A DNA stretch of 64,000 bases from an uncultured Ruminiclostridium sp. (GCA_947627695.1 CANQXF010000010.1:19192-83191); one strand, 5' to 3'; shown: positions 10,926 through 63,793, counted from the first letter of the stretch. Notes: generated from the sequence alone by a model not told the origin. Program-made: numbers and translations.

Positions 10926-11312
10926 AGTGTACAGTGTACAGTTGACAGTTGACAGTTGTGGAGTCCGCTTCGCGGACGGATTAGGATTGCCGCCTGCAAA
11001 TCAGCACCTGTCACTTTAAATCCGTTTTTCGCCAAAGGCGAAAAACTCCACAACTTTACACTGTACACTGTCAACTGAGAAATAGTGTACAGTTGACAGT
11101 TGTGGTATCCTGTACTTTCGGCAAGCCGAAAGTACGATCCAACATTGCTTGGATTGCCCTAAAGGCAATCCATATTGCTCCGCAATACCGCAATATTGGA
11201 CGCCTTCGGCGATGGATTAGGATTGCCGTCTGCAAATTTGTACCTGTCATTTCAAATCCGTCCGCGCAGCGGACACCACAACTGTACACTGTCAACTGTC
11301 AACTGTCAACTG
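10926..11312. repeat. Two tandem heptamer-bounded cassettes (family A)
   Basis: (GTGTACA/GTTGACA)n-GTTGTGG...CCACAAC-(TGTCAAC/TGTACAC)n with internal hairpins; followed by GGGGG RBS and ATG at 11329. Confidence 0.85.
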
Positions 11313-11328
11313 CTAAATTGGGGGTTTT

Positions 11329-11700
11329 ATGTTCAACACATCAACACTTATGAAAGATCTTACGTCCTTGCTGTCACAGAGCCTTTCCCTTACCGTCAGC
11401 GCTGACAGGGCGGACGAGGAGTGCATGACCCTGCGGTTTTGCGGCGGGGATTATGACGAGGTATTTCTGGACAGCGGGAAAAAAGCAAGGATACCCCTTT
11501 TGCTGCTGTCAAAGAGCATTGACGGCGAAAAGGCACTGAAGGAGCTTTGCAAAGCGCTGGATATTCTGGAAAAACAGCCGCCCGACGGCGTTATGCAGGT
11601 GAAGCTCTCCTCCCTGCCCGAATTGGTGGACAGGGGCGAGGACGGCGCGCTGTATGAGGCGCAGGCAGAGCTTTTCTGCTATCAGACTGCCGAGGGGTGA
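11329..11700 (+). CDS. Tail terminator-like / minor capsid protein
   Basis: 123 aa; position before tail tube; acidic C-terminal DRGEDGALYEAQ. Confidence 0.55.
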   Translation: MFNTSTLMKDLTSLLSQSLSLTVSADRADEECMTLRFCGGDYDEVFLDSGKKARIPLLLLSKSIDGEKALKELCKALDILEKQPPDGVMQVKLSSLPELVDRGEDGALYEAQAELFCYQTAEG

Positions 11701-11711
11701 AAGGAGTTTTT

Positions 11712-12146
11712 ATGATTTTGCTGAACAATGAGATAAAAGCGTATCTCAAAATAGGCGGCAACGACGAGGAGCCTGTCTGGGGCGATCTGGGCAAGGCGTT
11801 CAAGTCGGTGTCCCAAAGCCTTGGCGAGAGCAAGTACACCGCCGCATATCTTGCGGACGGCGGCTTTTCCTCAAGCGAGGTGACGGGGCTGAGCTTTCAG
11901 CTCACCCTGACGGGGGATTATATGAAAAACGACCCCGTGATAAAGTATCTTTTCTCCGAAGCCGTCCTTTACGGCACGGGAGAAGCCCGCAAAAGCAAGC
12001 TGAAATTAGTCCGTGACGGGACGCAGATACTCTGGAGCGTCACTATGACCAAGATATCCGAGGACGGCGGCGACGCGGACGAGCCTGACGAGGTAACGCT
12101 TGAGCTTTCGGGCAACGGAAAGCCCGCCGTTTCGGAGGCTGAATGA
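11712..12146 (+). CDS. Major tail (tube) protein
   Basis: ATG at 11712 after AAGGAG; WGDLGKAFKSVSQS...YLADGG...TGLSFQLTLTGD...LSGNGKP pattern. Confidence 0.7.
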   Translation: MILLNNEIKAYLKIGGNDEEPVWGDLGKAFKSVSQSLGESKYTAAYLADGGFSSSEVTGLSFQLTLTGDYMKNDPVIKYLFSEAVLYGTGEARKSKLKLVRDGTQILWSVTMTKISEDGGDADEPDEVTLELSGNGKPAVSEAE

Positions 12147-12484
12147 TGAAATTGCGCCGAAAAACGTTCACCCAGCATATACGGCTGGGCAAAACAAGGC
12201 TGACGGCGGAGATAGACCCCGAAATGGCGCTTTGCTCGATGAAAGCGGCGGCGGAGCGTGCGGGGCAGCTTGAGGACCCCGCCGCCCTCTGCGGTGAGGC
12301 GGCGCAGCTTTTCACGGATATTTTCGGGGAGGAAAATGCAAGGGCGTTGCTCTCCTTTTATGGTGGCAAGGCGGGGGAAACGGCGCTGCGCCTTATGCCC
12401 TTGCTGCTGGGGAAGATACTCCGCAAGGCGGCAAGGCGGGAGAAGAGGGAGCAGAAGAGAATAGCGAGGACGTTTGTAAGGTGA
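12143..12484 (+). CDS. Tail assembly chaperone (putative)
   Basis: 113 aa, ATGA overlap; IFGEENARALLSFYGG; lies after tail tube. Confidence 0.55.
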   Translation: MMKLRRKTFTQHIRLGKTRLTAEIDPEMALCSMKAAAERAGQLEDPAALCGEAAQLFTDIFGEENARALLSFYGGKAGETALRLMPLLLGKILRKAARREKREQKRIARTFVR

Positions 12485-12744
12485 AGAAGCGGGGGACGCT
12501 GAATAAGGAGCGAGTTATCGTTTTTTAATGCAATGTGCTTGTGAATTTTGACCGTTAAGCGTTCGGAATATGTTGTTTTGCCTTGTGCTTATCTTTATGC
12601 CTGCTCCTACGAGGGGCGGCGAAGCCGCCTTTTGTTCGGGCGAAGCCCGAACAAAAGCACTGATTTTGCTTCGCAAAATCAGTGAGTCGGAGCGCCTTTG
12701 GCGCTCCGACTGCGGCTTCGCCGCCCCTGACAAGCAGGCGGGAA

Positions 12745-12901
12745 AGTTAAAAGTGAAAAGTGCAAAATACACAATAGTGGAATTCGCTCCGCAGATGGAT
12801 TAGGATTGACTCCTGCAAATCAGCACCTGTCATTTCGAATCTGTTTTTCGCCAACGGCGAAAAACTCCACAACTATAAACTATCAACTATTAACTGTCAA
12901 C
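12745..12901. repeat. Heptamer-bounded cassette (family A), adjoining family B copy 12613-12737
   Basis: GTTAAAA-GTGAAAA-GTGCAAA...CCACAAC-TATAAAC-TATCAAC-TATTAAC-TGTCAAC. Confidence 0.8.
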
Positions 12902-12947
12902 TGCAACCCTTGCTGCTTTGCAGCAAGGGTTGCACGGGGGTGATACT

Positions 12948-13562
12948 TTGAAGAATTTGTGGAAATATTTCGGCAGGGGACTTCCTCCCTGCAAGGCGGG
13001 AGCGTTCTCCGTCAACACCAATGCGGGGGACGTGCTGAGAGCGTTATCTGTGATAGACGAGGACAGCCTTTGGGAAGACGTAAAGGTGAAATATGCCCTG
13101 CGGCTTTTGCTGAAGCCTTTGGGGAGGATCGCCGCTTTCTTCCTGCCGAAAAGAAAAAAGGCGGAGCTCCTGAACAAGGCGCTTTCCACTCTTTCCCCCA
13201 AGGGCGGAAAAGGCGGCGGCAGGCGCACCCTCTCCCTCACTTGCGACAGCGGACTTATCTATACCGCACTGCTCCAAAGCTACGGCATTGATATTCTGCG
13301 GGAGAAGGTGGATTTTCGGCTGCTGCCCCTGCTGGCGGCGGGAGCAGGTGAAGATACCCTGCTCCACCGTGTCGTTGAGATTCGCACGGCGGAAATTCCC
13401 CCTGCGGGAAAAGCTCCCGCCGAATATATCAGTCGACTTTCCCGCCTGAAGGCAATATACGCCCTGCCCGAGGAAAGCGGCTTTCAGAACGGAATGAACA
13501 GGCTTTTTGACAGCCTTGCCCGCGGCGGCGCAGAAAGGAACTCACAATGGACGGACAAATAG
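12948..13562 (+). CDS. Bacteriophage Gp15-like tail chaperone
   Basis: TTG start after GGGGG; DSGLIYTALLQSYGIDIL...EDTLLHRVVEIR matches A118 gp15 pattern. Confidence 0.7.
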   Translation: MKNLWKYFGRGLPPCKAGAFSVNTNAGDVLRALSVIDEDSLWEDVKVKYALRLLLKPLGRIAAFFLPKRKKAELLNKALSTLSPKGGKGGGRRTLSLTCDSGLIYTALLQSYGIDILREKVDFRLLPLLAAGAGEDTLLHRVVEIRTAEIPPAGKAPAEYISRLSRLKAIYALPEESGFQNGMNRLFDSLARGGAERNSQWTDK

Positions 13563-14296
13563 TATATCAGGTGAAGGTGGACAGCAGCAGAGTCCCCTCC
13601 GACCTGAACATGGCGGCAAGCCTGATAAATAACGGAACCAAAACGCTGGTGACCTTGGGTCAGCAGGCGGCAGCGAGGATAGGCAGCGCCCTTTCCTCCT
13701 TCTTCGCCGCAGAGGGGAACAAAATGAACGGTATGCTTTCATCTCTTTCAGGTGGCTTTAATATGCTGTCGGGAAGCACGGCGTCTGCTGCGGCGTCCCT
13801 TTCCCCTCTTACTCAAGGTATAAATTACCTGCTGTCTCTTGATCTGAACAGGCTGCTGTCCTTCTTCACACAGATGGGCAGTGCGGCCGTCAGCAAGGGG
13901 GCGGCGCAGGTCGCGTCTATCGGACTTGGCACTATGACGAAAAAAAGAAACGGTATGCAGTCTCAGCTTAATTCCGTGCCCACCTACCGAAGCGGCAAGG
14001 AGTATATCGACAGGGATAAGTACGCCTATCTCCATAAGGGAGAGGCGGTGCTTACCGCTGCGGAAAACCAGACCTTCCGTTCCCTGGGCGGACTGGAGGG
14101 ACTGTCCCTGCTGTGGGAGGGCGGAACGACGCCAATGCCTGCCCCTCCTCCCTCTCAGGGAGAAATAAGCGTACCTGTTCCCCAGCCGCAGAACGTGAAC
14201 GTGACCGTCGAGCTGGACGGCTACCAGATGGCAAAGGTGATGGCGACTGCCACCAACGAGCTGAACAGACAGCTTAATACGAGAGTAGTCAGGTAG
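13547..14296 (+). CDS. Miniature tape measure protein
   Basis: 249 aa; N-terminal DGQIVYQV, Ala/Ser/Gly-rich core, C-terminal YAYLHKGEAVLTAAEN and VTVELDG motifs typical of TMP ends. Confidence 0.65.
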   Translation: MDGQIVYQVKVDSSRVPSDLNMAASLINNGTKTLVTLGQQAAARIGSALSSFFAAEGNKMNGMLSSLSGGFNMLSGSTASAAASLSPLTQGINYLLSLDLNRLLSFFTQMGSAAVSKGAAQVASIGLGTMTKKRNGMQSQLNSVPTYRSGKEYIDRDKYAYLHKGEAVLTAAENQTFRSLGGLEGLSLLWEGGTTPMPAPPPSQGEISVPVPQPQNVNVTVELDGYQMAKVMATATNELNRQLNTRVVR

Positions 14297-14298
14297 AT

Positions 14299-14890
14299 GA
14301 CAGTTAAAAGTTAAGAGTGCAAAGTGCACAGTTGTGGATTTTTTGCTGCGCAAAAAAGATTAGGATTGCCGCCTGCAAATCAGCACCTGTCAATCAAAAT
14401 CCGTCCGCGAAGCGGACACCACAACTTTACACTGTACACTGTACACTTTACACTGTCAACTGCCAGCGGGCGTTTTGCCTTGTGCTTATCTTTATGCCTG
14501 CTCCTACGAGGGGCGGGACAGTTAAAAGTTAAGAGTGCAAAGTGCACAGTTGTGGATTTTTTGCTGCGCAAAAAAGATTAGGATTGCCGCCTGCAAATCA
14601 GCACCTGTCAATCAAAATCCGTCCGCGAAGCGGACACCACAACTTTACACTGTACACTGTACACTTTACACTGTCAACTGCCAGCGGGCGTTTTGCCTTG
14701 TGCTTATCTTTATGCCTGCTCCTACGAGGGGCGGGACAGTTAAAAGTTAAGAGTGCAAAGTGCACAGTTGTGGATTTTTTGCTGCGCAAAAAAGATTAGG
14801 ATTGCCGCCTGCAAATCAGCACCTGTCAATCAAAATCCGTCCGCGAAGCGGACACCACAACTGTCAACTGTACACTGTACACTGTCAACT
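14299..14890. repeat. Tandem 218-bp repeat (~2.7 copies) of a family A cassette
   Basis: Unit starts GACAGTTAAAAG at 14299, 14517, 14735; first two units identical. Confidence 0.92.
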
Positions 14891-14907
14891 GCTAAATTGG
14901 GGGTTTT

Positions 14908-15261
14908 ATGACAACAGATATTTATTTCGGGGACTACAAGCTCCCCTCGCTGATAAGCTATTCTGCGGACAGAGAGTGCCGCAACACAAAAAAGGAGTAC
15001 AACGCCGACGGCGACTTGCTGATAGATATGGTCTCCCGCAAGCTGAAGCTGACCCTTTCGCTGGGAAGATTGACATCGGAGCAGATGAAAGAGATACAGA
15101 CGGCGACACAGCCCGTGTTCTTTCCCGTCACCTTTTTCGACCCGCTGAAAGGGGAGACCTCCACCGCATATTTCCACCTGTCCGAACAGCCCGCACAGCT
15201 TGTCCCGTCAGGCGGGGGCGGAGCTTTCGACAGCCTGAAGCTGGTGCTGGAGGAAAAATAA
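14908..15261 (+). CDS. Distal-tail-like phage protein
   Basis: 117 aa after TMP; GDLLIDMVSRKLKLTLS, VTFFDP pattern. Confidence 0.6.
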   Translation: MTTDIYFGDYKLPSLISYSADRECRNTKKEYNADGDLLIDMVSRKLKLTLSLGRLTSEQMKEIQTATQPVFFPVTFFDPLKGETSTAYFHLSEQPAQLVPSGGGGAFDSLKLVLEEK

Positions 15262-15299
15262 CCGCCGCTTGCACGGCGTAAAACGTCAACGGAGGAACG

Positions 15300-17243
15300 A
15301 TGCTTAATATAACCGACAAATTCAGGGAGCTTGCCACGGCGGGCGGCAGACAGCCCTTCTGCGTCATCAGGGCGGGGGAAAAGACCTTCCTTGACGACAG
15401 CATAAAGTCCTTTCAGTTTCAGGAGGTGATATTCCCTGAGGAGCTGACCTTTGGCGCGGCCTGCTCGGGCAGATTTCACTTTGAGCTGGAAACGGCGGAG
15501 AATATCCCCCTTTCCGCCGAGATAAGACCGTATATCGGCTTCGGGGAATATTCCGAGGACGCAGAGCTTTGCCCGCTGGGAGTTTTTTGCATATCAAAGC
15601 GTTACAGGCGGAGGAACAGCTATTCCGTCACCTGTTACGACAGAATGTACCGCCTTGAGGACAAGTATAAAAGCGAGCTTGCCTTTCCCACCACCTCTGA
15701 CAAGCTGTTGGAGGAGATATGCGAAAAGTACGGTCTGGAATTTCAGGGGGACGCAGGCAGTAACTCCTGCGAAAAAATGCCCGCAGACGAAAGCGTAAGG
15801 AATATTCTGGGCTATCTGGCGGGACTGGAGGGAGCCTGCGCAGTTTTCGACAGATACGGCAGGCTTTGCTTCAGAAAGATGACGGACAGCGGCTTTCGCA
15901 TAACGCGGAGCAATTACGCCTCTCTTGATTTGAAGCAGGACCCTATGACCGTTGAGAAGATAGAGATAGACAACGGCGGGGACGAGCTGATAGAAAAGGG
16001 GGAAGGCACCAAGCTGGGGACGTACAGGATATACGACCCCTTTGCAAGTCAGCGTACCGCAGAAAAGCTGTACACTATGTACGGCGGCTTCACCTATTAT
16101 GGGCTGGAACTGGATATGCAGGGACTTCCCTTCCTTGAGGCGGGGGATATAATCACCGTGCAGAACGATTGCGACGACGGGCTTTTCACCGCCGTCATAG
16201 GCGAGCTTAACTTCACCTACAACGGCAGCTTCTGGCTCACCCTTTCCTCCAAGTCCAAAAATCCCGTGCAGGATTCGGAGGACGCTGAAACGCAGGAGGA
16301 GCAGTTCCAGCAGATGACCAAGTCCCTCAGCACCGTATATTACAATTATCGCAGCGAAAGGGACGTCACTGTGGGCGAAAATCTCACAAGCGTTGCAGAG
16401 GTGGATCTTGAGGTGCTGGAGGAGACCTCGGCGGTGCTGGCGGCTCAGCTTGTGGCAGAGCCGAAAAGCGACTGCCTGCTCACCCTTTCATACACGGTGG
16501 AGGATCTGGAAACGCCTCCTGAGATAACGGCCTCGCTGAAAGAGGGGGAGCATTTCCCTATCTGCCTGCACAACTTCTTTTCCGCCATTCCCGCAGGGTA
16601 TATCACAGTAAGGATATACGCCAAAGCTGAGGGAGGAACGGTGCTGTTCAGAAAGGGAAAGATAATCGCCACCGTAAGCGGTCAGCACCTTGCGGAAAAC
16701 GCTCTTAACCGTTCGCCCAACAGGACGATATATCAGAGCTTCGCACCCTTTGCGATACAGGCATCGAAATTTCAGTTCCCTATGCAGGAGCATCTTCTTC
16801 CCTCGCTTCAGATACCGGTGGGAATTACGCCGAAAGAAAGCGTTGCTTTGCGGATGTACGAATACAAGGTCTGCTTCGGGATCTGCGACAGCCTTATAGT
16901 GCCGAAAAGCGTACAAAAAGCGGAAATATATTCTCAGGACAACGTGATGTACGCCCGCCTTACCTTTTTCAACCCCATATTCACACAGGACGCCGCCCTG
17001 CTTGCCCCCGCCTTTAAGATACTTGCCGTATTCACCGAGGAGCAGGAGGAGCATAGCGTGACTGACGCAGTATGGGACGGCAACACCGAACTCGTTCTCA
17101 CCGTGGACGGAATGTTTGTGGGAGCTTCGCAGATACGGGTGCTTTATGAAAGCGCAAAGGGCGATATGACAGACGAATTTTCGGGTGAAAAATTAGACGA
17201 CTTTGATATCACCGCCGAGGCGGGAAAGGAGAATGTAGTATGA
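15300..17243 (+). CDS. Phage tail/baseplate protein
   Basis: 647 aa; LTFGAACS, PLGVFCI, VTCYDRMYRL, GLPFLEAGDIITV motifs of clostridial tail proteins. Confidence 0.7.
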   Translation: MLNITDKFRELATAGGRQPFCVIRAGEKTFLDDSIKSFQFQEVIFPEELTFGAACSGRFHFELETAENIPLSAEIRPYIGFGEYSEDAELCPLGVFCISKRYRRRNSYSVTCYDRMYRLEDKYKSELAFPTTSDKLLEEICEKYGLEFQGDAGSNSCEKMPADESVRNILGYLAGLEGACAVFDRYGRLCFRKMTDSGFRITRSNYASLDLKQDPMTVEKIEIDNGGDELIEKGEGTKLGTYRIYDPFASQRTAEKLYTMYGGFTYYGLELDMQGLPFLEAGDIITVQNDCDDGLFTAVIGELNFTYNGSFWLTLSSKSKNPVQDSEDAETQEEQFQQMTKSLSTVYYNYRSERDVTVGENLTSVAEVDLEVLEETSAVLAAQLVAEPKSDCLLTLSYTVEDLETPPEITASLKEGEHFPICLHNFFSAIPAGYITVRIYAKAEGGTVLFRKGKIIATVSGQHLAENALNRSPNRTIYQSFAPFAIQASKFQFPMQEHLLPSLQIPVGITPKESVALRMYEYKVCFGICDSLIVPKSVQKAEIYSQDNVMYARLTFFNPIFTQDAALLAPAFKILAVFTEEQEEHSVTDAVWDGNTELVLTVDGMFVGASQIRVLYESAKGDMTDEFSGEKLDDFDITAEAGKENVV

Positions 17244-18655
17244 TAAAGGGAAAAAGCACCGTACAGCTTTTCGATGCAAAGACGGGAAAGCAGATTTCCA
17301 GTCAGACAAATTCCAATATGGTAACAAATGCGATAGAGACAATCGCGAATAATAAAGACGATCTGGATCTTCTCAAGTGGGAAAGGATATCTGCCGGTGA
17401 TGTTTCAAACCTGGTGTCCGTCTCTCCCCTGCCTGCGATGATGCCCATCGCACAAAAGGCAATGTCGGGGGTTCTGCTGTGGGACGAGAATATAACTGAG
17501 GATCCCTCAATAGTTATCAAGCCTGATAAAATACACGAGGTAGGGCACGCAGGATCGCCTTACAGCGGCACGGATATTTACAAAGGCAGCTACAACGAAA
17601 ACGAAAGCGGGGCAATAGAGGGCGGTTATCGTCACGTCTGGGACTTTGACACCGACAAGGCAAACGGCACGATAAAATGCATTTCCCTCACATCACAAAA
17701 CGGCGGGAACATAGGGTATCATCTGTACAGCGACTCCAGCACAAAGCCGATTTATAATCAGAAATATTTCCATTCCTCAAACTATTATATTTCCCCTCAC
17801 TATAACAATAATTATGTGGAATATACGGGAGATACGAAGGGAAGATGCTTTTATATAAAGAAGCTGGAAGGTGAAGGGATCAGAATATATAAAAGGCTTA
17901 ACACAGATCTGTATTACAGCGACGTTCATCATCTGGCAAGTATACTTTCGATAACTCAGGAGCGCACTCCCGCTATGGAAAAGGCGGTGCGTCTTCCCAT
18001 AACACTGATAAGCAGTAATGATTCGGTGTATGTCCACGACGGAAAAATAAATGAAATAAACGTTACGGGTACTACCCTTCGTCATCTGACTTTTGATCTT
18101 GAGGGAAAGAACCTTTCCGACAAAACAGTAAATCTGCCGTTTTCAATAAGGCACATTTTCTCGCCTGCCGTATACAGGGACGGATATTATTACTGCGTAG
18201 GACAGAATGAAACCAACGGAGAAGTAAAAAAAGTAGACTCCGAGGGCAACCTGATATCCACCATATTACCTGACGTTCAAAAAAAATCTGTTGTTGCGTC
18301 GGGCATTGCGATGAATGATTTCTCGGGAGAAATTATATACTCCTTTGTCAGCACCAGCTATGTCAGTGAGTTGAACGTTCTGATAATAGACAGCGAGGAC
18401 CACAGTCATTGGACGACGACAGGCTCTATGGTGACGCCTTATTCGGGAACGCATAGCAGCCCATATCAAGCTCAGGTCATACAGCTTGATAATATGAAAA
18501 CGCCGTTTTTGCTTGCCAGCGACGGTTACTATGCTTTCAAAGCATATCCGTTCATAAATTCGTGCTATCTTGCCACGATAAACAATCTTCAAACCCCTAT
18601 CGTCAAAACCTCCGCCCAGACGATGAAGATAACCTACGAAATTTACGACGAATAA
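17240..18655 (+). CDS. Tail fibre / receptor-binding-like protein
   Basis: 471 aa, ATGA overlap; conserved ends (NMVTNA, GSYNENESG, VWDFDTDKANGTI; YLATINNLQTPIVKTSAQTMKITY) around an aromatic beta-rich core; visibly more AT-rich than upstream genes. Confidence 0.6.
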   Translation: MIKGKSTVQLFDAKTGKQISSQTNSNMVTNAIETIANNKDDLDLLKWERISAGDVSNLVSVSPLPAMMPIAQKAMSGVLLWDENITEDPSIVIKPDKIHEVGHAGSPYSGTDIYKGSYNENESGAIEGGYRHVWDFDTDKANGTIKCISLTSQNGGNIGYHLYSDSSTKPIYNQKYFHSSNYYISPHYNNNYVEYTGDTKGRCFYIKKLEGEGIRIYKRLNTDLYYSDVHHLASILSITQERTPAMEKAVRLPITLISSNDSVYVHDGKINEINVTGTTLRHLTFDLEGKNLSDKTVNLPFSIRHIFSPAVYRDGYYYCVGQNETNGEVKKVDSEGNLISTILPDVQKKSVVASGIAMNDFSGEIIYSFVSTSYVSELNVLIIDSEDHSHWTTTGSMVTPYSGTHSSPYQAQVIQLDNMKTPFLLASDGYYAFKAYPFINSCYLATINNLQTPIVKTSAQTMKITYEIYDE

Positions 18656-18659
18656 GGGC

Positions 18660-18688: not shown

Positions 18689-18730
18689 GTTAAAGCAGTA
18701 AAAAAAGGGATCGTTCAGCGATCCCGATAA

Positions 18731-18805
18731 GCCTCCATAGTTAAACGGATATAACAAACCCCTCCTAAGGGTTAGTTATCGGTTCGATTCCGGTTGGGGG
18801 TGCCA
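18731..18805 (+). tRNA. tRNA-Arg(CCT)
   Basis: Cloverleaf: acceptor GCCTCCA/TGGGGGT, anticodon arm AACCC-CTCCTAA-GGGTT, T-loop GGTTCGATTCC, encoded CCA. Confidence 0.93.
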
Positions 18806-18811
18806 CTGCAT

Positions 18812-18848
18812 TAGGAAAAATCCCCTCGTTTACGAGGGGATTTTTTTG
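18812..18848 (+). terminator. Intrinsic terminator after tRNA (near-duplicate at ~18980-19017)
   Basis: AAAAATCCCCTCGT-TT-ACGAGGGGATTTTTTT. Confidence 0.8.
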
Positions 18849-19228
18849 CAAATGGGAAAAGGGCTCAGACTTCGCCTTTGGCTCGTCTTTGCCTCTTTTC
18901 CTTGCACGATTTTTTCTTGAATTGCCCTTAAGGCAATTCATTTTGCTTCGCAAAACCGAAAAAACCGTGGTGTGGCATTAGGAAAAATCCCCTCGTTTCA
19001 CGAGGGGGATTTTTTGCAAATGGGAAAAGGCTTCGTCCGTCGCCTGACGGCTCGTCCTCAGCTCTTTTCATTGCACAGCCCCGTTTGGATTGCCCTAAAG
19101 GCAATCCATTTTGCTTACGCAAAACCACGGGATTGGACACGTTGTGCGGTCAAGTGGGAGGTGCTTGTCGGTCGGTGGCTCGTCCTCGTTTTTTCTTTTT
19201 TGCTTGCTCAAAGCCGAGAGCTAATATT

Positions 19229-19257: not shown

Positions 19258-19260
19258 GGT

Positions 19261-33056: not shown

Positions 33057-33525
33057 ATACAGTTGACAGTGTACAGTTGACAGTTGACAGTTGTGGTTCC
33101 GCTTCGCGGACGGATCGGGATTGCCGCCTGCTCATCTTTCACATCTGCTCCTACGCGGGGCGGCGAAGCCGCCGACGCCTGCGGAGCAGGAGTCGGGCAA
33201 GCCTGCCGAGGGCAGGCTTGCCGCTTGCCCGCGAAGCGGGCAAGCGCGGCTTCGCCGCCCCTGACAAGCAGTTGTTTGCTTAAGGAACAAAGTGAAAGTC
33301 CGCCTGTGAAAGTCCAGCACAAGAAAATAAAAAACGGCAGGCACACAAATTCGCACCTGCCATTCCAATCCCATTTTTCGCCAAAGGCGATGTCCAATAT
33401 TGCGGTATTGCGGAGCAATATGGATTGCCTTTAGGGCAATCCAAGCAATGTTGGATCGTACTTCCGCCGAAGGCGGAAGTACTGAATTCCACAACTTTAC
33501 ACTGTGCACTGTCAACTGTCAACTG
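33057..33525. repeat. Composite intergenic repeat (family A ends enclosing family B and the TTGCCCTAAAGGCAA module)
   Basis: Heptamer arrays at both ends in inverted orientation; begins 3 nt after the mazF stop on the minus strand. Confidence 0.85.
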
Positions 33526-33528
33526 TTC

Positions 33529-33873
33529 TTACTCCAGCCCAAAGCTGACGGACAGGGCATTGTCCACCCTGTGCATAGCGTCGTTGTCCAGCTCGCCCAT
33601 TCTCTCCTTCAGCCTTTTCTTGTCTAATGTACGGACCTGCTCCAGCAGAACGATAGAGTCCTTGGCAAGCCCGTAGCGTTCTGCGTCCAGAGATATGTGG
33701 GTGGGCAATCTGGACTTTTCCTTCTGACTTGTTATCGCCGCCGCTATCACCGTGGGAGAGTGGCGGTTGCCCATATCGTTCTGGACTATCAGCACGGGTC
33801 TTACTCCTCCTTGCTCGGAGCCGACCACGGGACTGAGGTCCGCATAATAAATTTCTCCTCTTTTTACTGTCAT
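33529..33873 (-). CDS. mazF: MazF/PemK family endoribonuclease toxin (NdoA/EndoA-like)
   Basis: [51 protein letters not shown]. Confidence 0.92.
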
Positions 33874-47741: not shown

Positions 47742-47759
47742 AATAATACCCCCAAATAA

Positions 47760-47907: not shown

Positions 47908-48927
47908 TCAGAACTGTTTAAGAAATCTTTGGTCATTCTCGTAGAACAGTCTCAAATCGTCCACCTGGTACCTCATCATAGCGATACGCTCAAGCCCGAG
48001 ACCAAAGGCAAAGCCGCTGTATACTTCGGGGTCGATACCGCAGTTTATCAGCACCTCAGGTCGAACCACGCCGCTGCCCAGCATTTCTATCCAGCCCTCG
48101 CCCTTGCAGAGAGGACAGCCCTTGCCGCCGCAGGTGAAGCACTGAAAGTCCATTTCGGCGGAGGGTTCGGTGTAGGGGAAGTGGTGGGGGCGGAAGCGGA
48201 CCTTTACATCATTTCCGTAAAGCCGCTTTGCGAACAGCTCAAGCGTTCCCTTTAAATCCGAAAAAGTTATCCCCTTGTCGACGACAAGCCCCTCGCACTG
48301 GTGGAAAATGGGGCTGTGAGTGGCGTCAACGGCGTCACGCCTGTAAACTCTGCCCGGGCTGAATATGGCGATAGGCGGAGCTTGCTCCAGCATTGTCCTT
48401 ACCTGTATGGAGCTTGTCTGCGTGCGGAGCAGTATGCTGTCTGTTATATAGAAAGTATCCTGCGGGTCACGGGCGGGGTGTCCCTCGTCGGTATTCAGCA
48501 TATCGAAAACGTACTTCGTTTCCTCCACCTCGGGACCGTCAACTACCGAATAGCCCATTCCCCTGAATATATCCTTAAGCTCGTCCATAACGGTGTTAAG
48601 CGGGTGGCGTCTGCCCTGGGAAAAATGCTTTCCCGGAAGAGTCACGTCGACTCTCTCGCTTTTCAGCTTCATTTCTGTCTGGGCGGCTTTGAGCTGCTCG
48701 CGCATATTGGCAATGCCGTTTTCAATGGACTGCCTTACGTCGTTGGCAAGCTGCCCTATCTGGGGACGCTCCTCGGGGGAAAGTCCGCCCATCTGCTTTA
48801 AAATGGCGGTAAGCTCGCCCTTTTTGCCCAACAGCCTGACCTTCAGATCGTCAAGCGCTTTGGTGTCGGACGCATTTTTTATTTCCGCAAGAGCCTTTTC
48901 CTGTATGGTTTTTAGCTGCTCCTTCAT
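47908..48927 (-). CDS. pheS: Phenylalanine--tRNA ligase alpha subunit
   Basis: HPARDPQDTFY, LRTQTS, GRVYRRD, FHQCEGL, RFRPHHFPYTEPS, GFAFGLGLER; promoter TTGCAA-17-TATAAT at 49162-49134. Confidence 0.96.
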   Translation of the reverse strand: MKEQLKTIQEKALAEIKNASDTKALDDLKVRLLGKKGELTAILKQMGGLSPEERPQIGQLANDVRQSIENGIANMREQLKAAQTEMKLKSERVDVTLPGKHFSQGRRHPLNTVMDELKDIFRGMGYSVVDGPEVEETKYVFDMLNTDEGHPARDPQDTFYITDSILLRTQTSSIQVRTMLEQAPPIAIFSPGRVYRRDAVDATHSPIFHQCEGLVVDKGITFSDLKGTLELFAKRLYGNDVKVRFRPHHFPYTEPSAEMDFQCFTCGGKGCPLCKGEGWIEMLGSGVVRPEVLINCGIDPEVYSGFAFGLGLERIAMMRYQVDDLRLFYENDQRFLKQF

Positions 48928-48939
48928 AATAACCTCCGC

Positions 48940-49097
48940 TGATAGTTTATAGTTTACAGTTAATAGTGCATAGTTGTGGTTCATTTCGCCGTTGGCGAAA
49001 TGTTATCTGAATTGTCGGGTGGGAATTTGTGGGTTTGATGTTGATTATCCTGCGGGTGGAATTGACATTGTCAACTGTCAATTTTCCATTGTCAACT
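48940..49097. repeat. Degenerate family A cassette in pheS 5' leader
   Basis: Heptamer arrays at both ends; ends AACTATCAGCGGAGG on the coding strand. Confidence 0.75.
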
Positions 49098-49333
49098 GTT
49101 TTTGTGCATACCACTCTATTTTATATCTTACCTATTATAGCACAAGTGGGGGAAAGTTGCAAGAGGAAACGGGAAATTTTCATAATAAGGCTAATGTCAA
49201 AGTTTTTTGAAAATTCTTAAGAAACTTTTTTCCAAAAAAGTTTCTTAAGCCTGCGGAGCATTGGGCGAAGCCCAAAATAAATTTCCCCGCCTGAAAACGG
49301 CGGGGAAATTATTTTTATTAACTCTTTCTCAAG

Positions 49334-53223: not shown

Positions 53224-53662
53224 AAGTTGACAGTGTACAGTTGACAGTTGACAGTTGTGGAGTTTTCGCCTTTGGCGAAAACGGATTTGGAATGACGGGT
53301 GCTTGTTTGTGCGTATGCGCTGAAAAGTATGTTGTGCTGAATGATTTGATTTTTCAGTGTACCTTTTTACAAAACTGCTGCTTGTCAGGGGCGGCGAAGC
53401 CGCACTTGCCCGCTTTGCGGGCAAGTGACAGCCTGCTTCGCAGGCTGTCCGACGCCTTCGGCGTCGGCGGCTTCGCCGCGCACAACGCCCTCTCATCGCC
53501 GCCACCCTCCCTTTATCACAACAGAAAAACAAAAAACGTTTTGGTTCCGCTTCGCGGACGGATTTGAAATGACAGGTAAAAATTTGCAGGCGGCAATCCA
53601 AATCCGTTTTCGCCAAAGGCGAAAACTTCACAACTGTCAACTGTACACTGTACACTGTCAAC
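53224..53662. repeat. Composite intergenic repeat (family A + family B)
   Basis: GTTGACA-GTGTACA-GTTGACA...CCACAAC-TGTCAAC-TGTACAC; family B copy at 53378-53486. Confidence 0.85.
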
Positions 53663-53695
53663 TAACAAAAAGGGCTCGAAGAGCCCTTTTTGTTA

Positions 53696-55383: not shown

Positions 55384-55395
55384 AAAACCCCCGAT

Positions 55396-55700
55396 GACAG
55401 TTGACAGTGTACAGTTGACAGTTGACAGTTGTGGAGCGGCTGCGCCGCGGATTTGGAATGACAGGTACAAATTCGCAGGCGGCAATCCAAATTCGTTTTC
55501 GCCAAAGGCGAAAACTCCACAACTGTGTATTGTGCACTGTGCACTGTGAACTTTTATTGTGTCCGTTGCGCGGACGGATTTGAAATGACAGGTACAAATT
55601 CGCAGGCGGCAATCCAAATCCGTTTTCGCCAAAGGCGAAAACTCCACAACTGTGTACTTTTCACTTTGCACTGTGCACTTTTATTGTGTTCGCTTCGCGG
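55396..55700. repeat. Two tandem family A cassettes upstream of AI-2E gene
   Basis: Direct duplication of GGATTTG(G)AATGACAGGTACAAATTCGCAGGCGGCAATCCAAAT(T/C)CGTTTTCGCCAAAGGCGAAAACTCCACAACTGTG. Confidence 0.85.
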
Positions 55701-55905
55701 ACGGATTTAAAAATGGCATATTTATACATTATTATTATATCTCTATTTCCTGCCGATGTCAATAAAAAATAAAGTGATTTTCGAAAATTTGACTTTGTCA
55801 GTTAAATGCGTGTATAAGGGCTTTGACAAGAGCAACGTCAACAAGGAAAATTAAGTGTAGCTAAAGAAATTCCCCTCTGTATTTCAGAGGGGAAACGGTT
55901 GCTTT

Positions 55906-57770: not shown

Positions 57771-57903
57771 TTGTTTTTGGAATATCAAACGTCAACTGAT
57801 ATCGCGCCTCTATCCCGACAGTATACTGTGCAATATGCCCGTCCTGTCTGCGGTCGGCGCGGGTGAAGGTCGTCTTTGGGCGACAATATTCCGTACCTTG
57901 CCG

Positions 57904-60528: not shown

Positions 60529-60546
60529 TTTTATGGTGTCCTCCGC

Positions 60547-60684
60547 TGATAGTTATTAGTTTATAGTTTATAGTTGATAGTTGTGGAGATTTTTCGGCGG
60601 AGCCGAAAAATGGATTTGAATGGTTTATTTGAAAGAGTTGTTTTAATTATACACTGGTAATTGGCAAATGTCAATTGTCAACTG
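60547..60684 (-). promoter_or_regulatory. valS promoter and leader embedded in family A cassette
   Basis: GTTGACA-ATTGACA (60669-60674 = -35)-17 bp-TATAAT (60646-60651); leader ends AACTATCAGCGGAGG. Confidence 0.75.
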
Positions 60685-60759
60685 CTTGTGGGAGGGGGTG
60701 TGGGGCGGGTCTATATTTCTGCCGATTTTGATACGGCGGGGAAATCATATTTTTCCGTA

Positions 60760-61440
60760 TCAACTGATCACTTTATATCTCATACGAACATACGAATCAC
60801 AAAGCGGCGTACATTCGATAAGTTTTAGTGCGCTCAATCCGGGGAGCTCGCTTTCGCAAGTCAAAGAATTGCCGTCAATCAGCGTGGAAGTGTCTTTTCC
60901 GCCGATAAGAATCGGCGCAACGATAATATCAACATAATCAAGCAGCTTTTCTCTTAAAAGCAATTCGTTTACAGTCCCGCCCGATTGTATTGTCATCCGT
61001 TCACATCCGAAATCAGATTTCAGCCGCTTAAATGCTTCCCGCAGGGATACTTGCTCCTGTGCAAGGATATGCAGATTATTTTCCTCAACGGAAAATGCGG
61101 GATGATCCGTATTGGAAGTAATCAATACACATTCTTTTGCCAAGGCGCAGAAATAACGAATACCATGCGCTGTCAGGTGGCTGTTGTCTAAAAGAACAAA
61201 AGATACCGGGGTTTTCTCGGGCATCTCTTTTTGATTTACGCCTACTTTTGCCTGAACTCTGCCGGTATTAAATGACCAGAGATCGGTCGTCCTCTCAATT
61301 TCGTAGTACTGATGCAGCCCTTCCTTCACTCCGTCTATCTTTGGGAAGTCTTTATCTACATCCATTTCGTCCGTTGAGCCGGTACTGATTTTTCCGTCTA
61401 AAGACATTAACAAAAATAAAGTGGTTATCGGTCTGTCCAT
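60760..61440 (-). CDS. RibD C-terminal / dihydrofolate-reductase-like protein
   Basis: LMSLDGKIST, TIQSGGTVN, VAPILIGGKDT; lower GC than neighbours. Confidence 0.8.
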   Translation of the reverse strand: MDRPITTLFLLMSLDGKISTGSTDEMDVDKDFPKIDGVKEGLHQYYEIERTTDLWSFNTGRVQAKVGVNQKEMPEKTPVSFVLLDNSHLTAHGIRYFCALAKECVLITSNTDHPAFSVEENNLHILAQEQVSLREAFKRLKSDFGCERMTIQSGGTVNELLLREKLLDYVDIIVAPILIGGKDTSTLIDGNSLTCESELPGLSALKLIECTPLCDSYVRMRYKVIS

Positions 61441-61652
61441 TAGTTGTCCTCCTCACTGCCGATTTGCCGAGCGGATATGCTCGGCTTTTAATAAATCTTA
61501 TCACAAAAATATGGGTAAATCAACATATATCAGCCATCGGTACATAATTTATACCTTATGTAATAATTACACCGCAAAGGCGCACTTTTTGTTTTCCTCC
61601 GCTTTTTATCAAGCTCCGCAAAATGACGTCCACAACCGTGAACTCTCAACCG

Positions 61653-63389
61653 TCACGTTCCGTCCACAATGACCGTCTTATTATTCGTAAATATCACCAT
61701 TCCCGGCTTTGCTCCTGACGGCTTTTTGACGTATTTCACCTTTGTGTAGTCCACGGGTATCCTCGTGGAGCCTTTCGCCTTGGAGTTCTGCGCGGCTATC
61801 CTTGCCGCCTCGAGAATGGTGCTGTCGGGTATCTCCTTTCCCGCCGCGAACACTATCACGTGCGCTCCGGGAATGTCCTTTGTGTGGAGCCACAGGTCGT
61901 CGCCCTTGGCGGTCTTAAAAGTCAGCCTGTCGTTTTGCAGGTTGTTCCTCCCCGCCCATATGTCAAAGCCGTCTGATGATTTGAATTTCAGCGGCTGAAG
62001 TGGCTTTACGTCCTTGTCGGTGCGCCTGTCGCGACCCTTTTTCAAGTATCCCGCCTGAGAAAGCTCAAAGCGTATCTCCTGAAGCTCGGCGTCCGTCTGC
62101 GCCCTTGCGGCGGCGTCAAACACGCTGTCAAGGTAGACAAGCTCCTGCTTTTCCTGCTCTATCAGCTTAGTTAGCATTTTTTCGGCGGTGTCCAGCTTTC
62201 TGTACTCGGCGTACAGCTTCTGGGCGTTTTGCGCAGGGGTCAGCCTTACGTCAAGGGGGATCACCTCAGTTTCTCCTGTCAGGTAGTTTTCCGCCTCCAG
62301 CCTGTTCATACCCTTGCTCATTCGGTAAATGTTGGCGGAAACTATGTCCCCTTTGACTCGAAATACCTCCCGTTCACCGCAGGCGGCAAGCTCCGCCTTT
62401 TGCAGCTCTATCTTCTTCGCAGTTCGGTTGTATATGGCAAGAATTGATTTAAGCAGGTCGCCTGAGCGCTGTTTCATACGCTCTGCGGCGGCTCTCCCCG
62501 AAAAAAATCCGTCCAGCAGGCGGCAGGGACTGTCAAATTCCTTTTGCACCGCCGAGGGGCCGTACTGCTCCGTATTTATAAAAGTAAAATCAAGGGGCTT
62601 TCCGTTTTTGTCCGAAATGGTGAAGAACCTCGCCTCACCCTCGGTCAGCGCCGCTTTCAGTTTTCCCAGAAAAAAGGCGAAACGCTCCCGCTTTTCTTCC
62701 AGCGCCGAGCAGGGGGCATCAACGTCCCTTGCGGTGTAGTAAGCCCATTCGCGGCATATTATGGGGGAAATTCCCTCGAATGTTTTCAGAAGTTCTTTTT
62801 CCAGCTTTTTGTCGGGGCAGGTCAGCAGGCGCTTTGCCGCCTCGTCAGCGGTGCAAAGGCGCAGATCCAGCCTGTCCTCCTTTGGCGGCGGCTCGTAGGT
62901 TATCCCCGGCAAAATGCGACGTACCGCCGAAACGTTGTCGCCGATACGCTTTATGCTGTCAACTACCCGCAGAATGCCGTCTCTTTCGGTGAGTAGGATA
63001 ATATTGCTGCACCGTCCCAAAAGCTCTGCCGAAAGGCGGTTGTGCACGATATCGCCTATCTCGTTGACGCACTCAAAATCAAAGCTCAGCACACGCTCTA
63101 ATCCGTCCTGCTCTATGCCGAGGAGCCGCCCGCCGCTTAAATGCTTTCGCAGAAGCATACAGAACATAGGCGGGGACTGGGGGTTGTCCGCCGAGGCTTC
63201 GGTTATGCAGACCCGTGCAGTTGACGGATTTGCGGACATAGCAATTCTGACGCCGCCTTGACTTCCCCGCAGGGAGATCACAAGCTCGTCTTTTGCAGGC
63301 TGATGTATTTTGTCCACCCGTGAGCCGATAAGCCCTTTGCTCAAAAGCTCTTTGCGGACAAGGCTGAGAAATGCGCCGTCAAGCGACAT
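61653..63389 (-). CDS. rqcH: Rqc2/RqcH (FbpA, NFACT) ribosome quality-control protein
   Basis: PPMFCMLLRKHL, ERVLSFDF, ELLGRCSNIIL, AQNAQKLY, GRNNLQND, WLHTKDIPGAHV, VDYT, KPGMVIF. Confidence 0.93.
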   Translation of the reverse strand: MSLDGAFLSLVRKELLSKGLIGSRVDKIHQPAKDELVISLRGSQGGVRIAMSANPSTARVCITEASADNPQSPPMFCMLLRKHLSGGRLLGIEQDGLERVLSFDFECVNEIGDIVHNRLSAELLGRCSNIILLTERDGILRVVDSIKRIGDNVSAVRRILPGITYEPPPKEDRLDLRLCTADEAAKRLLTCPDKKLEKELLKTFEGISPIICREWAYYTARDVDAPCSALEEKRERFAFFLGKLKAALTEGEARFFTISDKNGKPLDFTFINTEQYGPSAVQKEFDSPCRLLDGFFSGRAAAERMKQRSGDLLKSILAIYNRTAKKIELQKAELAACGEREVFRVKGDIVSANIYRMSKGMNRLEAENYLTGETEVIPLDVRLTPAQNAQKLYAEYRKLDTAEKMLTKLIEQEKQELVYLDSVFDAAARAQTDAELQEIRFELSQAGYLKKGRDRRTDKDVKPLQPLKFKSSDGFDIWAGRNNLQNDRLTFKTAKGDDLWLHTKDIPGAHVIVFAAGKEIPDSTILEAARIAAQNSKAKGSTRIPVDYTKVKYVKKPSGAKPGMVIFTNNKTVIVDGT

Positions 63390-63403
63390 AAAAACCCCCG
63401 ATG

Positions 63404-63793
63404 ATAGTTAAAAAGTGTACAGTGTAAAGTGAAAAGTTGTGGTGATTTTTCGGCGGAGCCGAAAAATGGATTTGGATTGATGTATTGTGCTTAATGGAAG
63501 GTGGTGCGAGGAGAGAAGGTTGTGCGCGGCGAAGCCGCCGACGCCTGCGGAGCAGGCGTCGGGCAAGCCTGCCGAGGGCAGGCTTGCCGCTTGCCCGCAA
63601 AGCGGGCAAGCGCGGCTTCGCCGCCCCCGACAAGCAGCTGTTCAGTGTACAGTGTACAGTTGACAGTTGACAGTTGTGGTATCGCCTGCGGCGATGGATC
63701 AGGATTGCCTCCTACAAATTTCTACCTGTCATTTCAAATCCGTCCGCGAAGCGGACTCCACAACTGTACACTGTACACTGTACACTGTCAACT
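63404..63793. repeat. Composite intergenic repeat (family A + family B) between nif3-like gene and rqcH
   Basis: Heptamer arrays at 63404-63440, 63644-63680, 63760-63793; ends at GGGGG RBS of rqcH. Confidence 0.85.

Follow-up and report, generated by a model that had tools for sequence, protein, structure and literature searches.

The window, by which we mean the whole 64,000-nucleotide stretch of DNA analysed here, carries 12 cassette loci or array groups as counted by an array detector, two half elements being included among the 12. A sequence-only reading had described a family of modular intergenic cassettes at positions 10926-63793. That family is real, and every full locus named is present at coordinates that were exact or off by a few bases. 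The core sequence GATTGCCGCCTGCAAAT has 12 matches with at most three mismatches against 0.31 expected, and none of 100 shuffles reached 12. The features, none assigned a strand, are as follows.

3784..3960, half element: heptad array at 3784-3817 plus G-rich cargo of ~150 nt
8115..8270, half element: array at 8115-8147 directly after the TGA of the upstream ORF, with G-rich cargo as at 3784..3960
10922..11078, Type I cassette: arms at 10922-10961 and 11051-11078; RNA fold of -62 kcal/mol, z -7.7
11082..11318, Type I cassette: nested three-hairpin module of ~90 nt; right arm ending 10 nt 5' of a GGGGG ribosome-binding site (RBS), ATG at 11329
12741..12903, Type I cassette flanked by phage-like genes
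14298..14892, three tandem copies: 218-bp unit (cassette plus 60-nt spacer) repeated 2.7 times at 99% identity; the first array runs from the upstream TAG and the last arm reaches the RBS and ATG of the gene at 14908
33065..33529, composite cassette: arms around a partial core, a GC-rich multi-hairpin module of ~130 nt and a three-hairpin module; adjoins the mazF stop codon
47757..47915, cassette exactly filling the junction from the pheS stop codon to the pheT RBS
48938..49099, degenerate cassette in the pheS 5'UTR, with a conserved promoter on one side and an RBS on the other
53229..53664, composite cassette: GC multi-hairpin module and full core
55393..55712, two adjacent Type I cassettes: detected array group 55393-55682; 127-bp unit repeated 2.2 times; left arm adjoins the GGGGG RBS of a minus-strand gene
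60549..60685, degenerate cassette upstream of valS: ATAGTTT-type heptads, GTTGTGG and a hairpin
63411..63794, composite: arm and GC multi-hairpin module at 63411-63636, then a complete Type I cassette at 63637-63794

The architecture is the one first described, running from heptads through GTTGTGG, a hairpin, a core bounded by GGATT and AAATCC, a second hairpin and CCACAAC to inverse heptads. At 10922..11078, for example, GTTGTGG is succeeded by the hairpin GTCCGCTTCGCGGAC, the core at 10976-11028, the hairpin TTTTTCGCCAAAGGCGAAAAA and CCACAAC. The hairpins are indeed swappable among copies, and other modules do nest inside. Three half elements had been proposed: those at ~3778-3815 and 8109-8146 stand, at 3784 and 8115, as an array with G-rich cargo, while the one at ~5638-5665 is a degenerate G/T-rich stretch with no clear heptad array. 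The cargo at 3784..3960 derives by deletion from a ~560-nt repeat.

Arms with a conserved sequence

A census of the 2.7-Mb metagenome-assembled genome (MAG), from an uncultured member of the Oscillospiraceae (gut Clostridia), found 190 period-7 arrays in 96 loci. Throughout the genome the arms face inward, a plus array preceding a minus array and never the reverse. Their consensus of about five heptads is GTTGACA GTGTACA GTGTACA GTTGACA GTTGTGG, with heptad words that are specific to their position along the arm. Arm length is tight: three, four and five full units plus GTTGTGG are found in 27, 63 and 57 arrays, and only three arrays are longer. These features make it scarcely credible that the arrays are microsatellites made by slippage or artefacts of assembly and binning. 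The short tandem units would fit such an origin, as would the spread of contig GC from 0.41 to 0.50 with the cassette-rich contigs at the high end, but arms that are fixed in length, carry words set by their position and require an inverted partner would not. Orthologous loci also occur in the independently assembled MAG of a sister species, and the contigs rich in cassettes lie next to one another on a single segment of the chromosome.

The conserved property of the arms is their sequence, not their pairing. Complementarity between the two arms of one cassette (27.1 of 35 positions) is not higher than between arms of different cassettes (27.9 of 35), and pairing is imperfect, at about 77%.

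Placement between stop codons and ribosome-binding sites

To the claim that all copies are strictly intergenic, which holds, one refinement applies: the start of an array often coincides with the upstream stop codon or falls a few bases inside it. At about 25 sites an arm ends a few bases 5' of an RBS and start codon, and cassettes are placed exactly between stop codons and ribosome-binding sites. Copies also lie within operons and 5'UTRs; 20 loci fall between convergent and 11 between divergent genes. No copy was found in helix 25 or 45 of 23S rRNA, all being between protein-coding genes or in their UTRs. GGGGG-type ribosome-binding sites are enriched about 20-fold directly after arrays (11 of 161, versus 2 of 639 for GGAGG), and the pheT RBS reads GGAGG at the empty site and GGGGG at the filled one. 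RNA folding of six window copies gives one common four-way junction (z-scores of -2.9 to -7.7).

This placement raises the alternative that the cassettes are not selfish and were selected as cis-regulatory RNA, translation or stability modules that supply an RBS and a protective or processing stem. The arm ends next to starts, the arrays beginning at stop codons, the GGGGG enrichment and the strong folds all point this way, as does the proposal that TAACTGA heptamers 5' of starts are translational regulators in Beggiatoaceae (PMC4679880). We nevertheless consider it unlikely. Core orientation relative to transcription is random (20 sense, 17 antisense), which sits poorly with a selected RNA, as do the loci between convergent and divergent genes, and the same essential genes lack cassettes in sister clades. 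Arm pairing shows no compensatory upkeep. At the Rfam gathering threshold no family matches the cassettes, the only hits being RNase P, tRNA and a T-box, and none of the weak matches on the cassettes or the 560-nt repeat is credible.

Copies are concentrated around oriC

Copies are concentrated around the replication origin: 72 of the 96 loci (75%) lie within 427 kb, or 15.8% of the assembly (binomial p about 1e-37), and this cassette-rich part is colinear with a single sister-genome contig centred on dnaA/oriC. The sister genome has the same concentration. Such a distribution, together with arms kept in sequence rather than complementarity and fixed at about five heptads, would be expected if the arms were double-stranded DNA sites bound by a host protein with a role in organising or marking the chromosome near its origin, the hairpin cargo being secondary. 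Comparable systems are parS/ParB, the ram sites of RacA and the operators of the omega repressor of plasmid pSM19035, which binds 7-bp heptad arrays in either orientation; B. subtilis-type parS was not found in the assembly. We regard this reading as quite unlikely. No candidate binding protein was identified, and ParB genes occur in every relative, with arrays or without. Near relatives that share these genes and their synteny live without arrays, a third array-rich genome (G062) has its arrays scattered over many contigs, and the same arm design surrounds a selfish-looking small gene in many phyla.

Filled and empty sites in relatives

A comparison of empty and filled sites, suggested by the sequence-only reading, proved positive. 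This genome and the sister species have filled sites at the pheS-pheT junction and in the pheS 5'UTR; both sites are empty in the next relatives, L002 and L003, where the pheS-pheT site is a 17-nt spacer. The sister's pheS-pheT cassette has arms and hairpins that differ from those here, and module insertions with near-identical flanks distinguish the two sister genomes. One G062 cassette occupies a site that is empty in this genome, and one other site is common to both but with different cargo. The pattern has 143 matches in this species, 149 in the sister species and 39 in the next relative; in 57 others the count is 0-4. Most sites are shared by the sister species, nearly all anchorable C4 loci having a repeat-bearing spacer of similar length in the sister contig, and the rate at which the cassettes evolve is close to that of ordinary intergenic DNA (92-94% identity, versus 89% at codon position 3); there is therefore no sign of recent mobility.

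High-copy intergenic palindromes with GC hairpins, here including GCGAAGC-type loops typical of stable single-strand DNA hairpins, might suggest REP/REPIN-type elements moved by a RAYT (Y1/HUH) transposase, or MITEs of a conventional IS. This identity is very improbable and, for this assembly, largely refuted. A six-frame search for PF01797 found none in this genome or G062 and only a pseudogene in the sister, and a genome self-BLAST showed no multi-copy IS. As the earlier reading had it, the window has no transposase among the 38 larger ORFs scanned. Neither a target-site duplication nor a target motif was seen at the pheS-pheT and pheS leader sites. Known plasmids gave no matches, and phages a single 41-bp array match.

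Gene-bearing cassettes in the same genus

The suggestion to look for longer copies carrying an ORF was also productive: in same-genus genomes, PF05635/TIGR02436 genes lie between inverted heptamer arrays. The parallel that the earlier reading drew with heptamer arrays around four-helix-bundle protein genes is thereby borne out: such genes occur between inverted arrays in same-genus and metagenome cassettes, in one case with homologous termini. That case is L231, from the same genus, whose PF05635 gene cassette reads GTTATGG-hairpin-GATTT...AATC-ATCGCCGCAGGCGATAC-ATTAAC-heptads. It has in common with the window copies a left end of GTT(A/G)TGG-hairpin-GATTT and a right end of AATC-ATCGCCGCAGGCGATAC-C/A-A/T-C/T-AAC-heptads, and it carries, base for base, the hairpin found at window position 47757. 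The termini of the window cassettes are thus, by sequence comparison, homologous to those of a gene-bearing cassette. In a metagenome contig (L381) the gene lies between (GTTGACA)n and (TGTCAAC)n, the same word as in the window arms, and in L172 between (AGTTAAA)n-AGTTGTGG arms. More broadly, 37 of 69 PF05635/TIGR02436 genes (54%) have a period-7 array within 350 nt upstream, some 35 times background (0.039 arrays per kb). The protein matches PDB entries 2RLD and 2GSC, both deposited with five chains.

Two observations complicate this link. Protein identity to L231 is 50-55% for L228, L229 and L381, which have other words, and only 21% for L172, which shares GTTGTGG; protein similarity therefore does not follow the heptad word, which counts against the link model. 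In addition, a profile search found no PF05635 gene or remnant in this genome, the sister or G062, and searches with an HMM of our own, in six frames and by tblastn were likewise negative, the cassettes here being ORF-less. The candidate partner is thus missing exactly where copies are most numerous, as these three array-rich genomes lack the gene.

Comparison with known elements

The closest known relative of the cassettes is the ORF-bearing intervening sequence (IVS) of 23S rRNA in Coxiella burnetii, Leptospira and Brucella, which encodes S23p. In Coxiella the IVS is a selfish element of 428 nt whose terminal stem spans 28 bp; it is excised by RNase III and has tandem GACAGAT heptamers upstream of the ORF for S23p, a toroidal homopentamer (PMC4990558); PF05635 resembles Avd (PMC10053308). 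Like the IVS, the cassettes are palindromic insertions with tandem heptamers (GACAGTT here) and terminal inverted repeats able to form a long stem. The IVS is transcribed within a host RNA, as the cassettes would be, and the IVS cargo family, PF05635/TIGR02436, supplies the gene found in the homologous same-genus cassettes. Unlike the IVS, the copies here are outside rRNA, between protein-coding genes, and ORF-less; they number ~96 rather than one per rRNA operon, contain nested hairpin modules and cluster at oriC. RNase III excision is established for the IVS and would apply to the cassettes by extension.

The heptamers of cyanobacteria, Beggiatoaceae and Bacteroidetes (STRR; TAACTGA, MacGregor 2015) are similarly intergenic 7-nt tandems, often just 5' of starts and patchy across phyla (PMC4679880). 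In the published descriptions those repeats are direct, with no partner arm and no cargo, and MacGregor 2015 (PMC4679880) neither reported them in Firmicutes nor made the link to a four-helix-bundle gene. Our pattern scan found (AMAGTNN)n-GTTGTGG arms in Microcoleus, Bacteroidales, Chryseobacterium, Planctomycetes and others.

REP/BIME and REPIN-RAYT systems are likewise high-copy intergenic palindromes that are co-transcribed, modular and non-autonomous (PMC3116915). The cassettes differ in that RAYT is absent and their arms consist of heptad arrays where a REP has a single hairpin. We know of no origin-centred distribution of REPs. Neisseria has Correia/NEMIS elements and Streptococcus pneumoniae has BOX elements; both are small, modular, built on inverted repeats and, like the cassettes, inserted beside genes. 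They are co-transcribed, as the cassettes would be, and RNase III cuts Correia stems. They have defined terminal inverted repeats and target duplications instead of heptad arrays; to our knowledge they are unrelated to the cassettes in sequence and have no gene-bearing form of the PF05635 type. Eukaryotic Foldback (FB) transposons share long inverted arms of short tandem repeats and a central cargo that is variable or absent, although they belong to another domain of life with unrelated units and enzymes and offer an analogy only.

Interpretation

The earlier proposal of a non-autonomous mobile or recombining element with heptamer termini is supported by the empty and filled sites and the ORF-bearing relatives. 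We favor, with a probability of roughly 0.6, the reading that these loci are a lineage-amplified, ORF-less foldback family, miniature relatives of heptad-armed PF05635/TIGR02436 (S23p / Avd-like) cassettes. The family would have spread in the common ancestor of this species and its sister by means of a trans-acting factor no longer encoded here, the leading candidate being the four-helix-bundle protein. Inheritance would then have been vertical, with change mainly through inter-copy recombination in the form of module gain and loss, word swaps and tandem duplication. Because they are located inside operons and 5'UTRs, copies would be co-transcribed, the arm stem closing the four-way junction into which they would fold. 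The precedent of 23S intervening sequences makes many of them probable substrates of RNase III, whose gene is present in the genome, and cutting would alter both the processing of the mRNA and the initiation of translation from the neighbouring RBS; since the arms pair imperfectly, cleavage is uncertain for many copies. Both the spread of the cassettes and their cutting as RNA are thus things that we infer. Viewed as gene-less IVS relatives, the cassettes have an origin-centred distribution that is left without explanation.

A broader reading, which we put forward only tentatively and hold to be possible but improbable, is that heptad-armed cassettes and toroidal pentameric PF05635 proteins form one phylum-spanning selfish class, with the 23S IVS and the 'unexplained' heptamer repeats as special cases. 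Here the gene would have been lost after a burst, leaving ~100 orphan copies frozen in a 0.4-0.5-Mb zone at oriC that now serve as mRNA processing and translation-start modules of housekeeping operons. On that reading, the oriC-centred zone would imply that spread, or retention, was coupled to replication initiation or to origin-proximal chromosome organisation.

Cyanobacteria, sulfur bacteria and Bacteroidetes have for decades been known to carry tandem heptamers that lack an explanation, and the 23S rRNA IVS and its S23p/Avd-like protein have had no known function or means of spread. The present work ties the two together in Firmicutes, where one genus has the arm design with and without the four-helix-bundle gene, the gene-less form being present at about a hundred operon junctions. 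New here are the ORF-less amplification, the placement of 75% of loci in 16% of the genome around dnaA/oriC and the bias towards GGGGG-type ribosome-binding sites. Two points, both new, can be tested: the extreme concentration at oriC, and the systematic coupling of cassette ends to stop codons and an unusual GGGGG ribosome-binding site. Should the link between protein and heptads prove functional, a new class of bacterial mobile or recombining element would be defined by it, and the large TIGR02436 family would gain a role.

Anatomy of the cassettes and their setting in the window

Direct reading of the window loci recovered the architecture claimed in the sequence-only reading at every full locus it named. 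In each, 7-bp words lead into GTTGTGG, a short GC hairpin, a core (GGATT..GATTGCCGCCTGCAAAT..CCTGTCATTTCAAATCC), a second hairpin, CCACAAC and the inverse words, with GTTGACA, GTGTACA, GTGCACA, GTGCAAA and GTTAAAA as the words of the window arms (the heptad arrays at the cassette ends). Every window locus shows period-7 arrays in Tandem Repeats Finder, our own period-7 detector yields 12 array groups, and the window contains 12 occurrences of a 17-nt core motif where 0.31 would be expected. The half element proposed at 5638-5665 proved to be merely a degenerate G/T-rich stretch. Larger copies contain nested modules, among them ~90-nt three-hairpin, ~130-nt GC-rich multi-hairpin and G-rich ~150-nt blocks. 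A related noncoding repeat of ~560 nt opens with a heptad array followed by GTTGTGG, one hairpin and GGATT. It also has G-runs and a hairpin resembling a terminator (AAAACCGCCTTTT..AAAAGGCGGTTTT), and lacks both a conserved ORF and an Rfam match.

Repeat features in the window and on contig C4
Window 14299-14883: tandem 218-bp unit, 2.7 copies, 99% identity
Window 3818-3960 and 8148-8270: partial copies of the ~560-nt repeat
C4: 35597, 73757, 85903 and 103883, + strand: well-conserved copies of the ~560-nt repeat
C4: 78341, 110189, 116932 and 120724, - strand: well-conserved copies of the ~560-nt repeat

The window covers C10:19192-83191 of the host genome, G000 (2.70 Mb, 67 contigs, 46% GC). 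G000 is placed by its PheS relatives among uncultured gut Oscillospiraceae (‘Ruminiclostridium’ MAGs), and its closest genome is a rabbit MAG of the sister species (G061), with 97% PheS identity and about 94-95% nucleotide identity. By our own crude ORF picks, window 4158-18655 is a phage-like, possibly GTA-like structural cluster whose genes include those for terminase, an SPP1-type portal, minor capsid and tail tube; cassettes sit between its genes, and it ends at a tRNA (18731-18802). The interval from this tRNA to the RNase P RNA gene (18808-19126) holds a 168-nt unit repeated 1.9 times (81% match) with terminator-like hairpins. The remaining window is housekeeping: pheST, valS, NFACT, ABC transporters, a PBP, SpoIIR, RNase P RNA and tRNA.

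Arms of fixed design, maintained in sequence and not in pairing

Genome-wide, G000 carries 190 arrays at 96 loci, always in the order + array, then - array, and never the reverse. Nearly all arms (147 of 150) consist of 3, 4 or 5 full units plus GTTGTGG, and the consensus arm has position-specific words (GTTGACA GTGTACA GTGTACA GTTGACA GTTGTGG). This fixed unit number and these position-specific words imply that the arms act as a degenerate, heptad-periodic terminal inverted repeat of ~35 bp rather than as a free microsatellite.

Predicted RNA folds of six window copies converge on one four-way junction (z-scores -2.9 to -7.7), modelled as a closing stem (arms plus GTTGTGG/CCACAAC), hairpin 1, a core hairpin and hairpin 2. 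Complementarity between the two arms of a single cassette (27.1/35) does not exceed that between arms taken from different cassettes (27.9/35; permutation p for a value at least as high, 0.99), which refutes a selected arm helix: the sequence of the arms is maintained and their pairing is not. Core orientation relative to flanking transcription is random (20 sense, 17 antisense), ruling out a strand-specific RNA function. Rfam searches covering the window, three C4 segments, one cassette pair and the ~560-nt repeat, with gathering and E-value cut-offs, assigned no family to the cassettes or to this repeat, and membership of a known structured-RNA family is rejected.

Heptad arms enclose four-helix-bundle genes in other genomes

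The claim that the window lacks a transposase held for the 38 larger ORFs scanned. A six-frame search for the Y1/RAYT transposase (PF01797) was negative in G000 and in G062, the next relative with arrays, and returned only a pseudogene in G061, which largely rules out a REP/RAYT identity. Self-BLAST found no multi-copy IS in G000, a MAG assembly, in which IS elements are often missing; its repeats are only duplicated cell-wall glycosyltransferase genes, and a conventional IS or MITE is rejected. The only sizeable coding repeats of the assembly are 3-4 diverged copies (85-89%) of a 2.2-2.7-kb segment on C27, C31, C61 and C23, encoding a glycosyltransferase and a UDP-galactopyranose mutase-like protein.

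Longer copies bearing an ORF, which the sequence-only reading had suggested might exist, do occur elsewhere, with four-helix-bundle genes (PF05635/TIGR02436) between heptad arms. On an Ignavibacteria contig, a 114-aa ORF between (AGTTAAA)3-AGTTGAA-AGTTGTGG and (TTTCAAC)n is a TIGR02436 ‘four helix bundle protein’ (PF05635). Six genomes of the same genus as G000 contain PF05635 genes; the heptad arrays on their two sides are inverted and use words particular to each lineage (TGCATAA, ATTCACA and others). One such cassette, L231 of genome G029, matches the window cassettes in the design of its ends, and its right hairpin, ATCGCCGCAGGCGATAC, is identical to that of the copy at window 47757. A metagenome contig, L381, has such a gene between (GTTGACA)x5 and (TGTCAAC)n, GTTGACA being the dominant word of G000; the encoded protein shares 50% identity with the L231 protein and matches PDB entries 2RLD and 2GSC, each deposited with five chains. 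In a set of 69 TIGR02436 genes for which both flanks could be inspected, a period-7 array lies upstream, at 350 nt or less, in 37 cases and downstream in 13, the background density in relatives being 0.039 arrays per kb.

The IVS, an ORF-bearing intervening sequence of 23S rRNA, is described in Coxiella burnetii as a 428-nt selfish element with a 28-bp terminal stem, excised by RNase III; three tandem GACAGAT heptamers, whose number varies among strains, lie upstream of its S23p ORF (PMC4990558). Xanthomonas S23p is a toroidal homopentamer of four-helix bundles, and an old idea holds that the IVS ORF codes for a mobility component (PMC4990558). PF05635 also resembles Avd, the DGR accessory protein (PMC10053308). 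TAACTGA heptamers have been reported in intergenic DNA just upstream of start codons in Beggiatoaceae, cyanobacteria and Bacteroidetes, with no mechanism offered and no Firmicutes among the hosts (PMC4679880). Our literature search, of incomplete coverage, found no description of four-helix-bundle cassettes with heptad arms at sites other than rRNA. On the best-supported reading, the window cassettes are ORF-less members of a class of heptad-armed, IVS-type cassettes.

Two findings are difficult for a four-helix-bundle partner. PF05635 genes are missing from exactly the three array-rich genomes (G000, G061 and G062), and the similarity of the four-helix-bundle proteins does not track the arm word. 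Our own HMM, a six-frame search and tblastn found no remnant of the gene in G000, and no degenerate four-helix-bundle pseudogene was found within the cassettes or the ~560-nt repeat.

Spread of the arm motif across taxa

A four-unit array pattern matches 143 times in G000, 149 times in G061, 39 times in G062 (in other word flavours) and 0-4 times in 57 further relatives. At least 106 stretches of a species-representative collection contain a stricter pattern that must end in GTTGTGG; they come mostly from Oscillospiraceae and other Clostridia MAGs, and beyond Clostridia in Bacteroidales, Chryseobacterium, Chitinophagaceae, Planctomycetes, Desulfobacterales, Microcoleus, Ignavibacteria, Kiritimatiellia and candidate phyla. 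With no match in known plasmids, a single 41-bp array match in phages and only one viral contig with the GTTGTGG-ended pattern, plasmid or phage carriage is rejected. In a Bacteroidales MAG (JAQUJY010000019.1, L128 2270-4500), eight same-strand units each comprise (GTKAAAA)n-GTTGTGG, then a 22-nt repeat (TTCCYTCTCCGYCATTGCRAC) present 3-7 times, and a hairpin; they appear to be a different, tandemly organised use of the GTTGTGG-type arm motif.

Empty and filled sites, and the tempo of change

Relatives display both empty and filled sites, as the sequence-only reading had anticipated for a mobile element. In two relatives beyond the sister species (L002 and L003), the pheS-pheT junction is TGA, a 17-nt spacer with GGAGG, then TTG; in G000, a 148-nt cassette starts directly after TGA and ends ..TTTGGGGGTATTATTTTG, and the sister species also carries a cassette there, one whose words and hairpin differ and whose core is partial. 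A metagenome search gave no match to an empty pheS-pheT site within the species. Conversely, one site that lacks a cassette in G000 (C35:5341-5453) is filled in G062, and at C28:21958 G062 has only two arms around a 25-nt centre where G000 has arms, two hairpins and a core.

A cassette can differ between G000 and G061 even where its flanks are virtually identical across about 250 aligned nt. One pair differs by a ~90-nt module inserted in a hairpin and 10/35 arm changes; in another, a GTTGTGG-hairpin-GGATTT module splits an array whose G061 counterpart is an uninterrupted run of nine units. Nearly all G061-anchored loci on C4 have a repeat-bearing spacer of similar length in G061.

Identity of G000 contig C4 to the sister species G061
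Codon position 3: 89.4%
Arrays: 92.2%
Cassette interiors: 94.2%
Other intergenic DNA: 93.9%

These identities, near the ordinary intergenic rate, together with the shared loci, indicate that the family is not hypervariable and shows no sign of recent transposition; the rapid turnover suggested by pheS is thus refuted by the contig-wide comparison. Most insertions are older than the G000/G061 split; some are older than G062 and others younger.

Placement next to genes and ribosome-binding sites

With crude gene calls, the loci lie between 54 co-directional, 20 convergent and 11 divergent gene pairs. At 40 of 145 outer array starts, the stop codon of an ORF of at least 100 aa ends within -6 to +14 nt (mode 0-3 nt), and beyond about 25 outer array ends an RBS and start codon follow within 5-15 nt. 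RBS-plus-ORF combinations lie within 25 nt downstream of an array for 11 of 161 GGGGG-type sites as against 2 of 639 GGAGG sites, an enrichment of about 20-fold for GGGGG directly after arrays, genome-wide. An identical 22-nt string, CTGCTAAATTGGGGGTTTTATG, precedes two different phage-like genes (window 11307-11331 and 14886-14910).

The pheS leader (window 48927-49334) has a sigma-70-like promoter (TTGCAA..TATAAT) that is conserved in L002, and its cassette occupies the 5'UTR. Lying between promoter and RBS, this cassette must, judging from the promoter position, be transcribed. No T-box was found in the leader at the Rfam gathering threshold, unlike tyrS on C4, which has one (L083 7604-7834).

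Clustering of the loci around oriC

The loci are concentrated around the replication origin. Contig C4 carries dnaA, dnaN, gyrB, gidA and parB-like genes, and an AT-rich dnaA-dnaN spacer with DnaA boxes.

C4:84535-85893: dnaA

One ~560-nt copy takes up most of this spacer beside oriC. A single 289-kb contig of G061 (its C3) is colinear with G000 contigs C7(end)-C28-C35-C4-C59-C10, and 72 of all 96 loci fall on these six contigs, which add up to 427 kb (15.8% of the assembly; binomial p about 1e-37); C1, C2, C3 and C5 of G000 have four loci in 0.8 Mb. In G061, most array matches are likewise on C3 and none on the two largest contigs. By our estimate, the window is some 110-180 kb away from oriC, on one side of it. 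A binning artefact is rejected as the source of the uneven distribution, since a single G061 contig is colinear with the cassette-rich contigs.

Another main difficulty for the cassette-class reading is this origin-centred distribution, which it does not explain; the distribution sustains a rival reading at the DNA level, with the arms as putative binding sites of an origin-domain protein. Replacement of ParABS by the arrays is rejected, as ParB is present in all relatives; two ParB-family genes lie near oriC (C4:102167 and C4:104752). The B. subtilis-type parS TGTTTCACGTGAAACA, allowing up to 2 mismatches, has no match in the whole G000 assembly, a result that is not diagnostic.

Proposed history and function

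As ORF-less members of the IVS-type class, the cassettes would have been amplified in the common ancestor of the G000 species and its sister species, and would since have been inherited vertically and reshaped by recombination between copies. A four-helix-bundle pentamer may be, or may have been, their trans-acting factor. The cassettes are probably co-transcribed with flanking genes; G000 encodes RNase III, which may cut the stems of the cassette RNA, and the cassettes may affect the translation of downstream genes.
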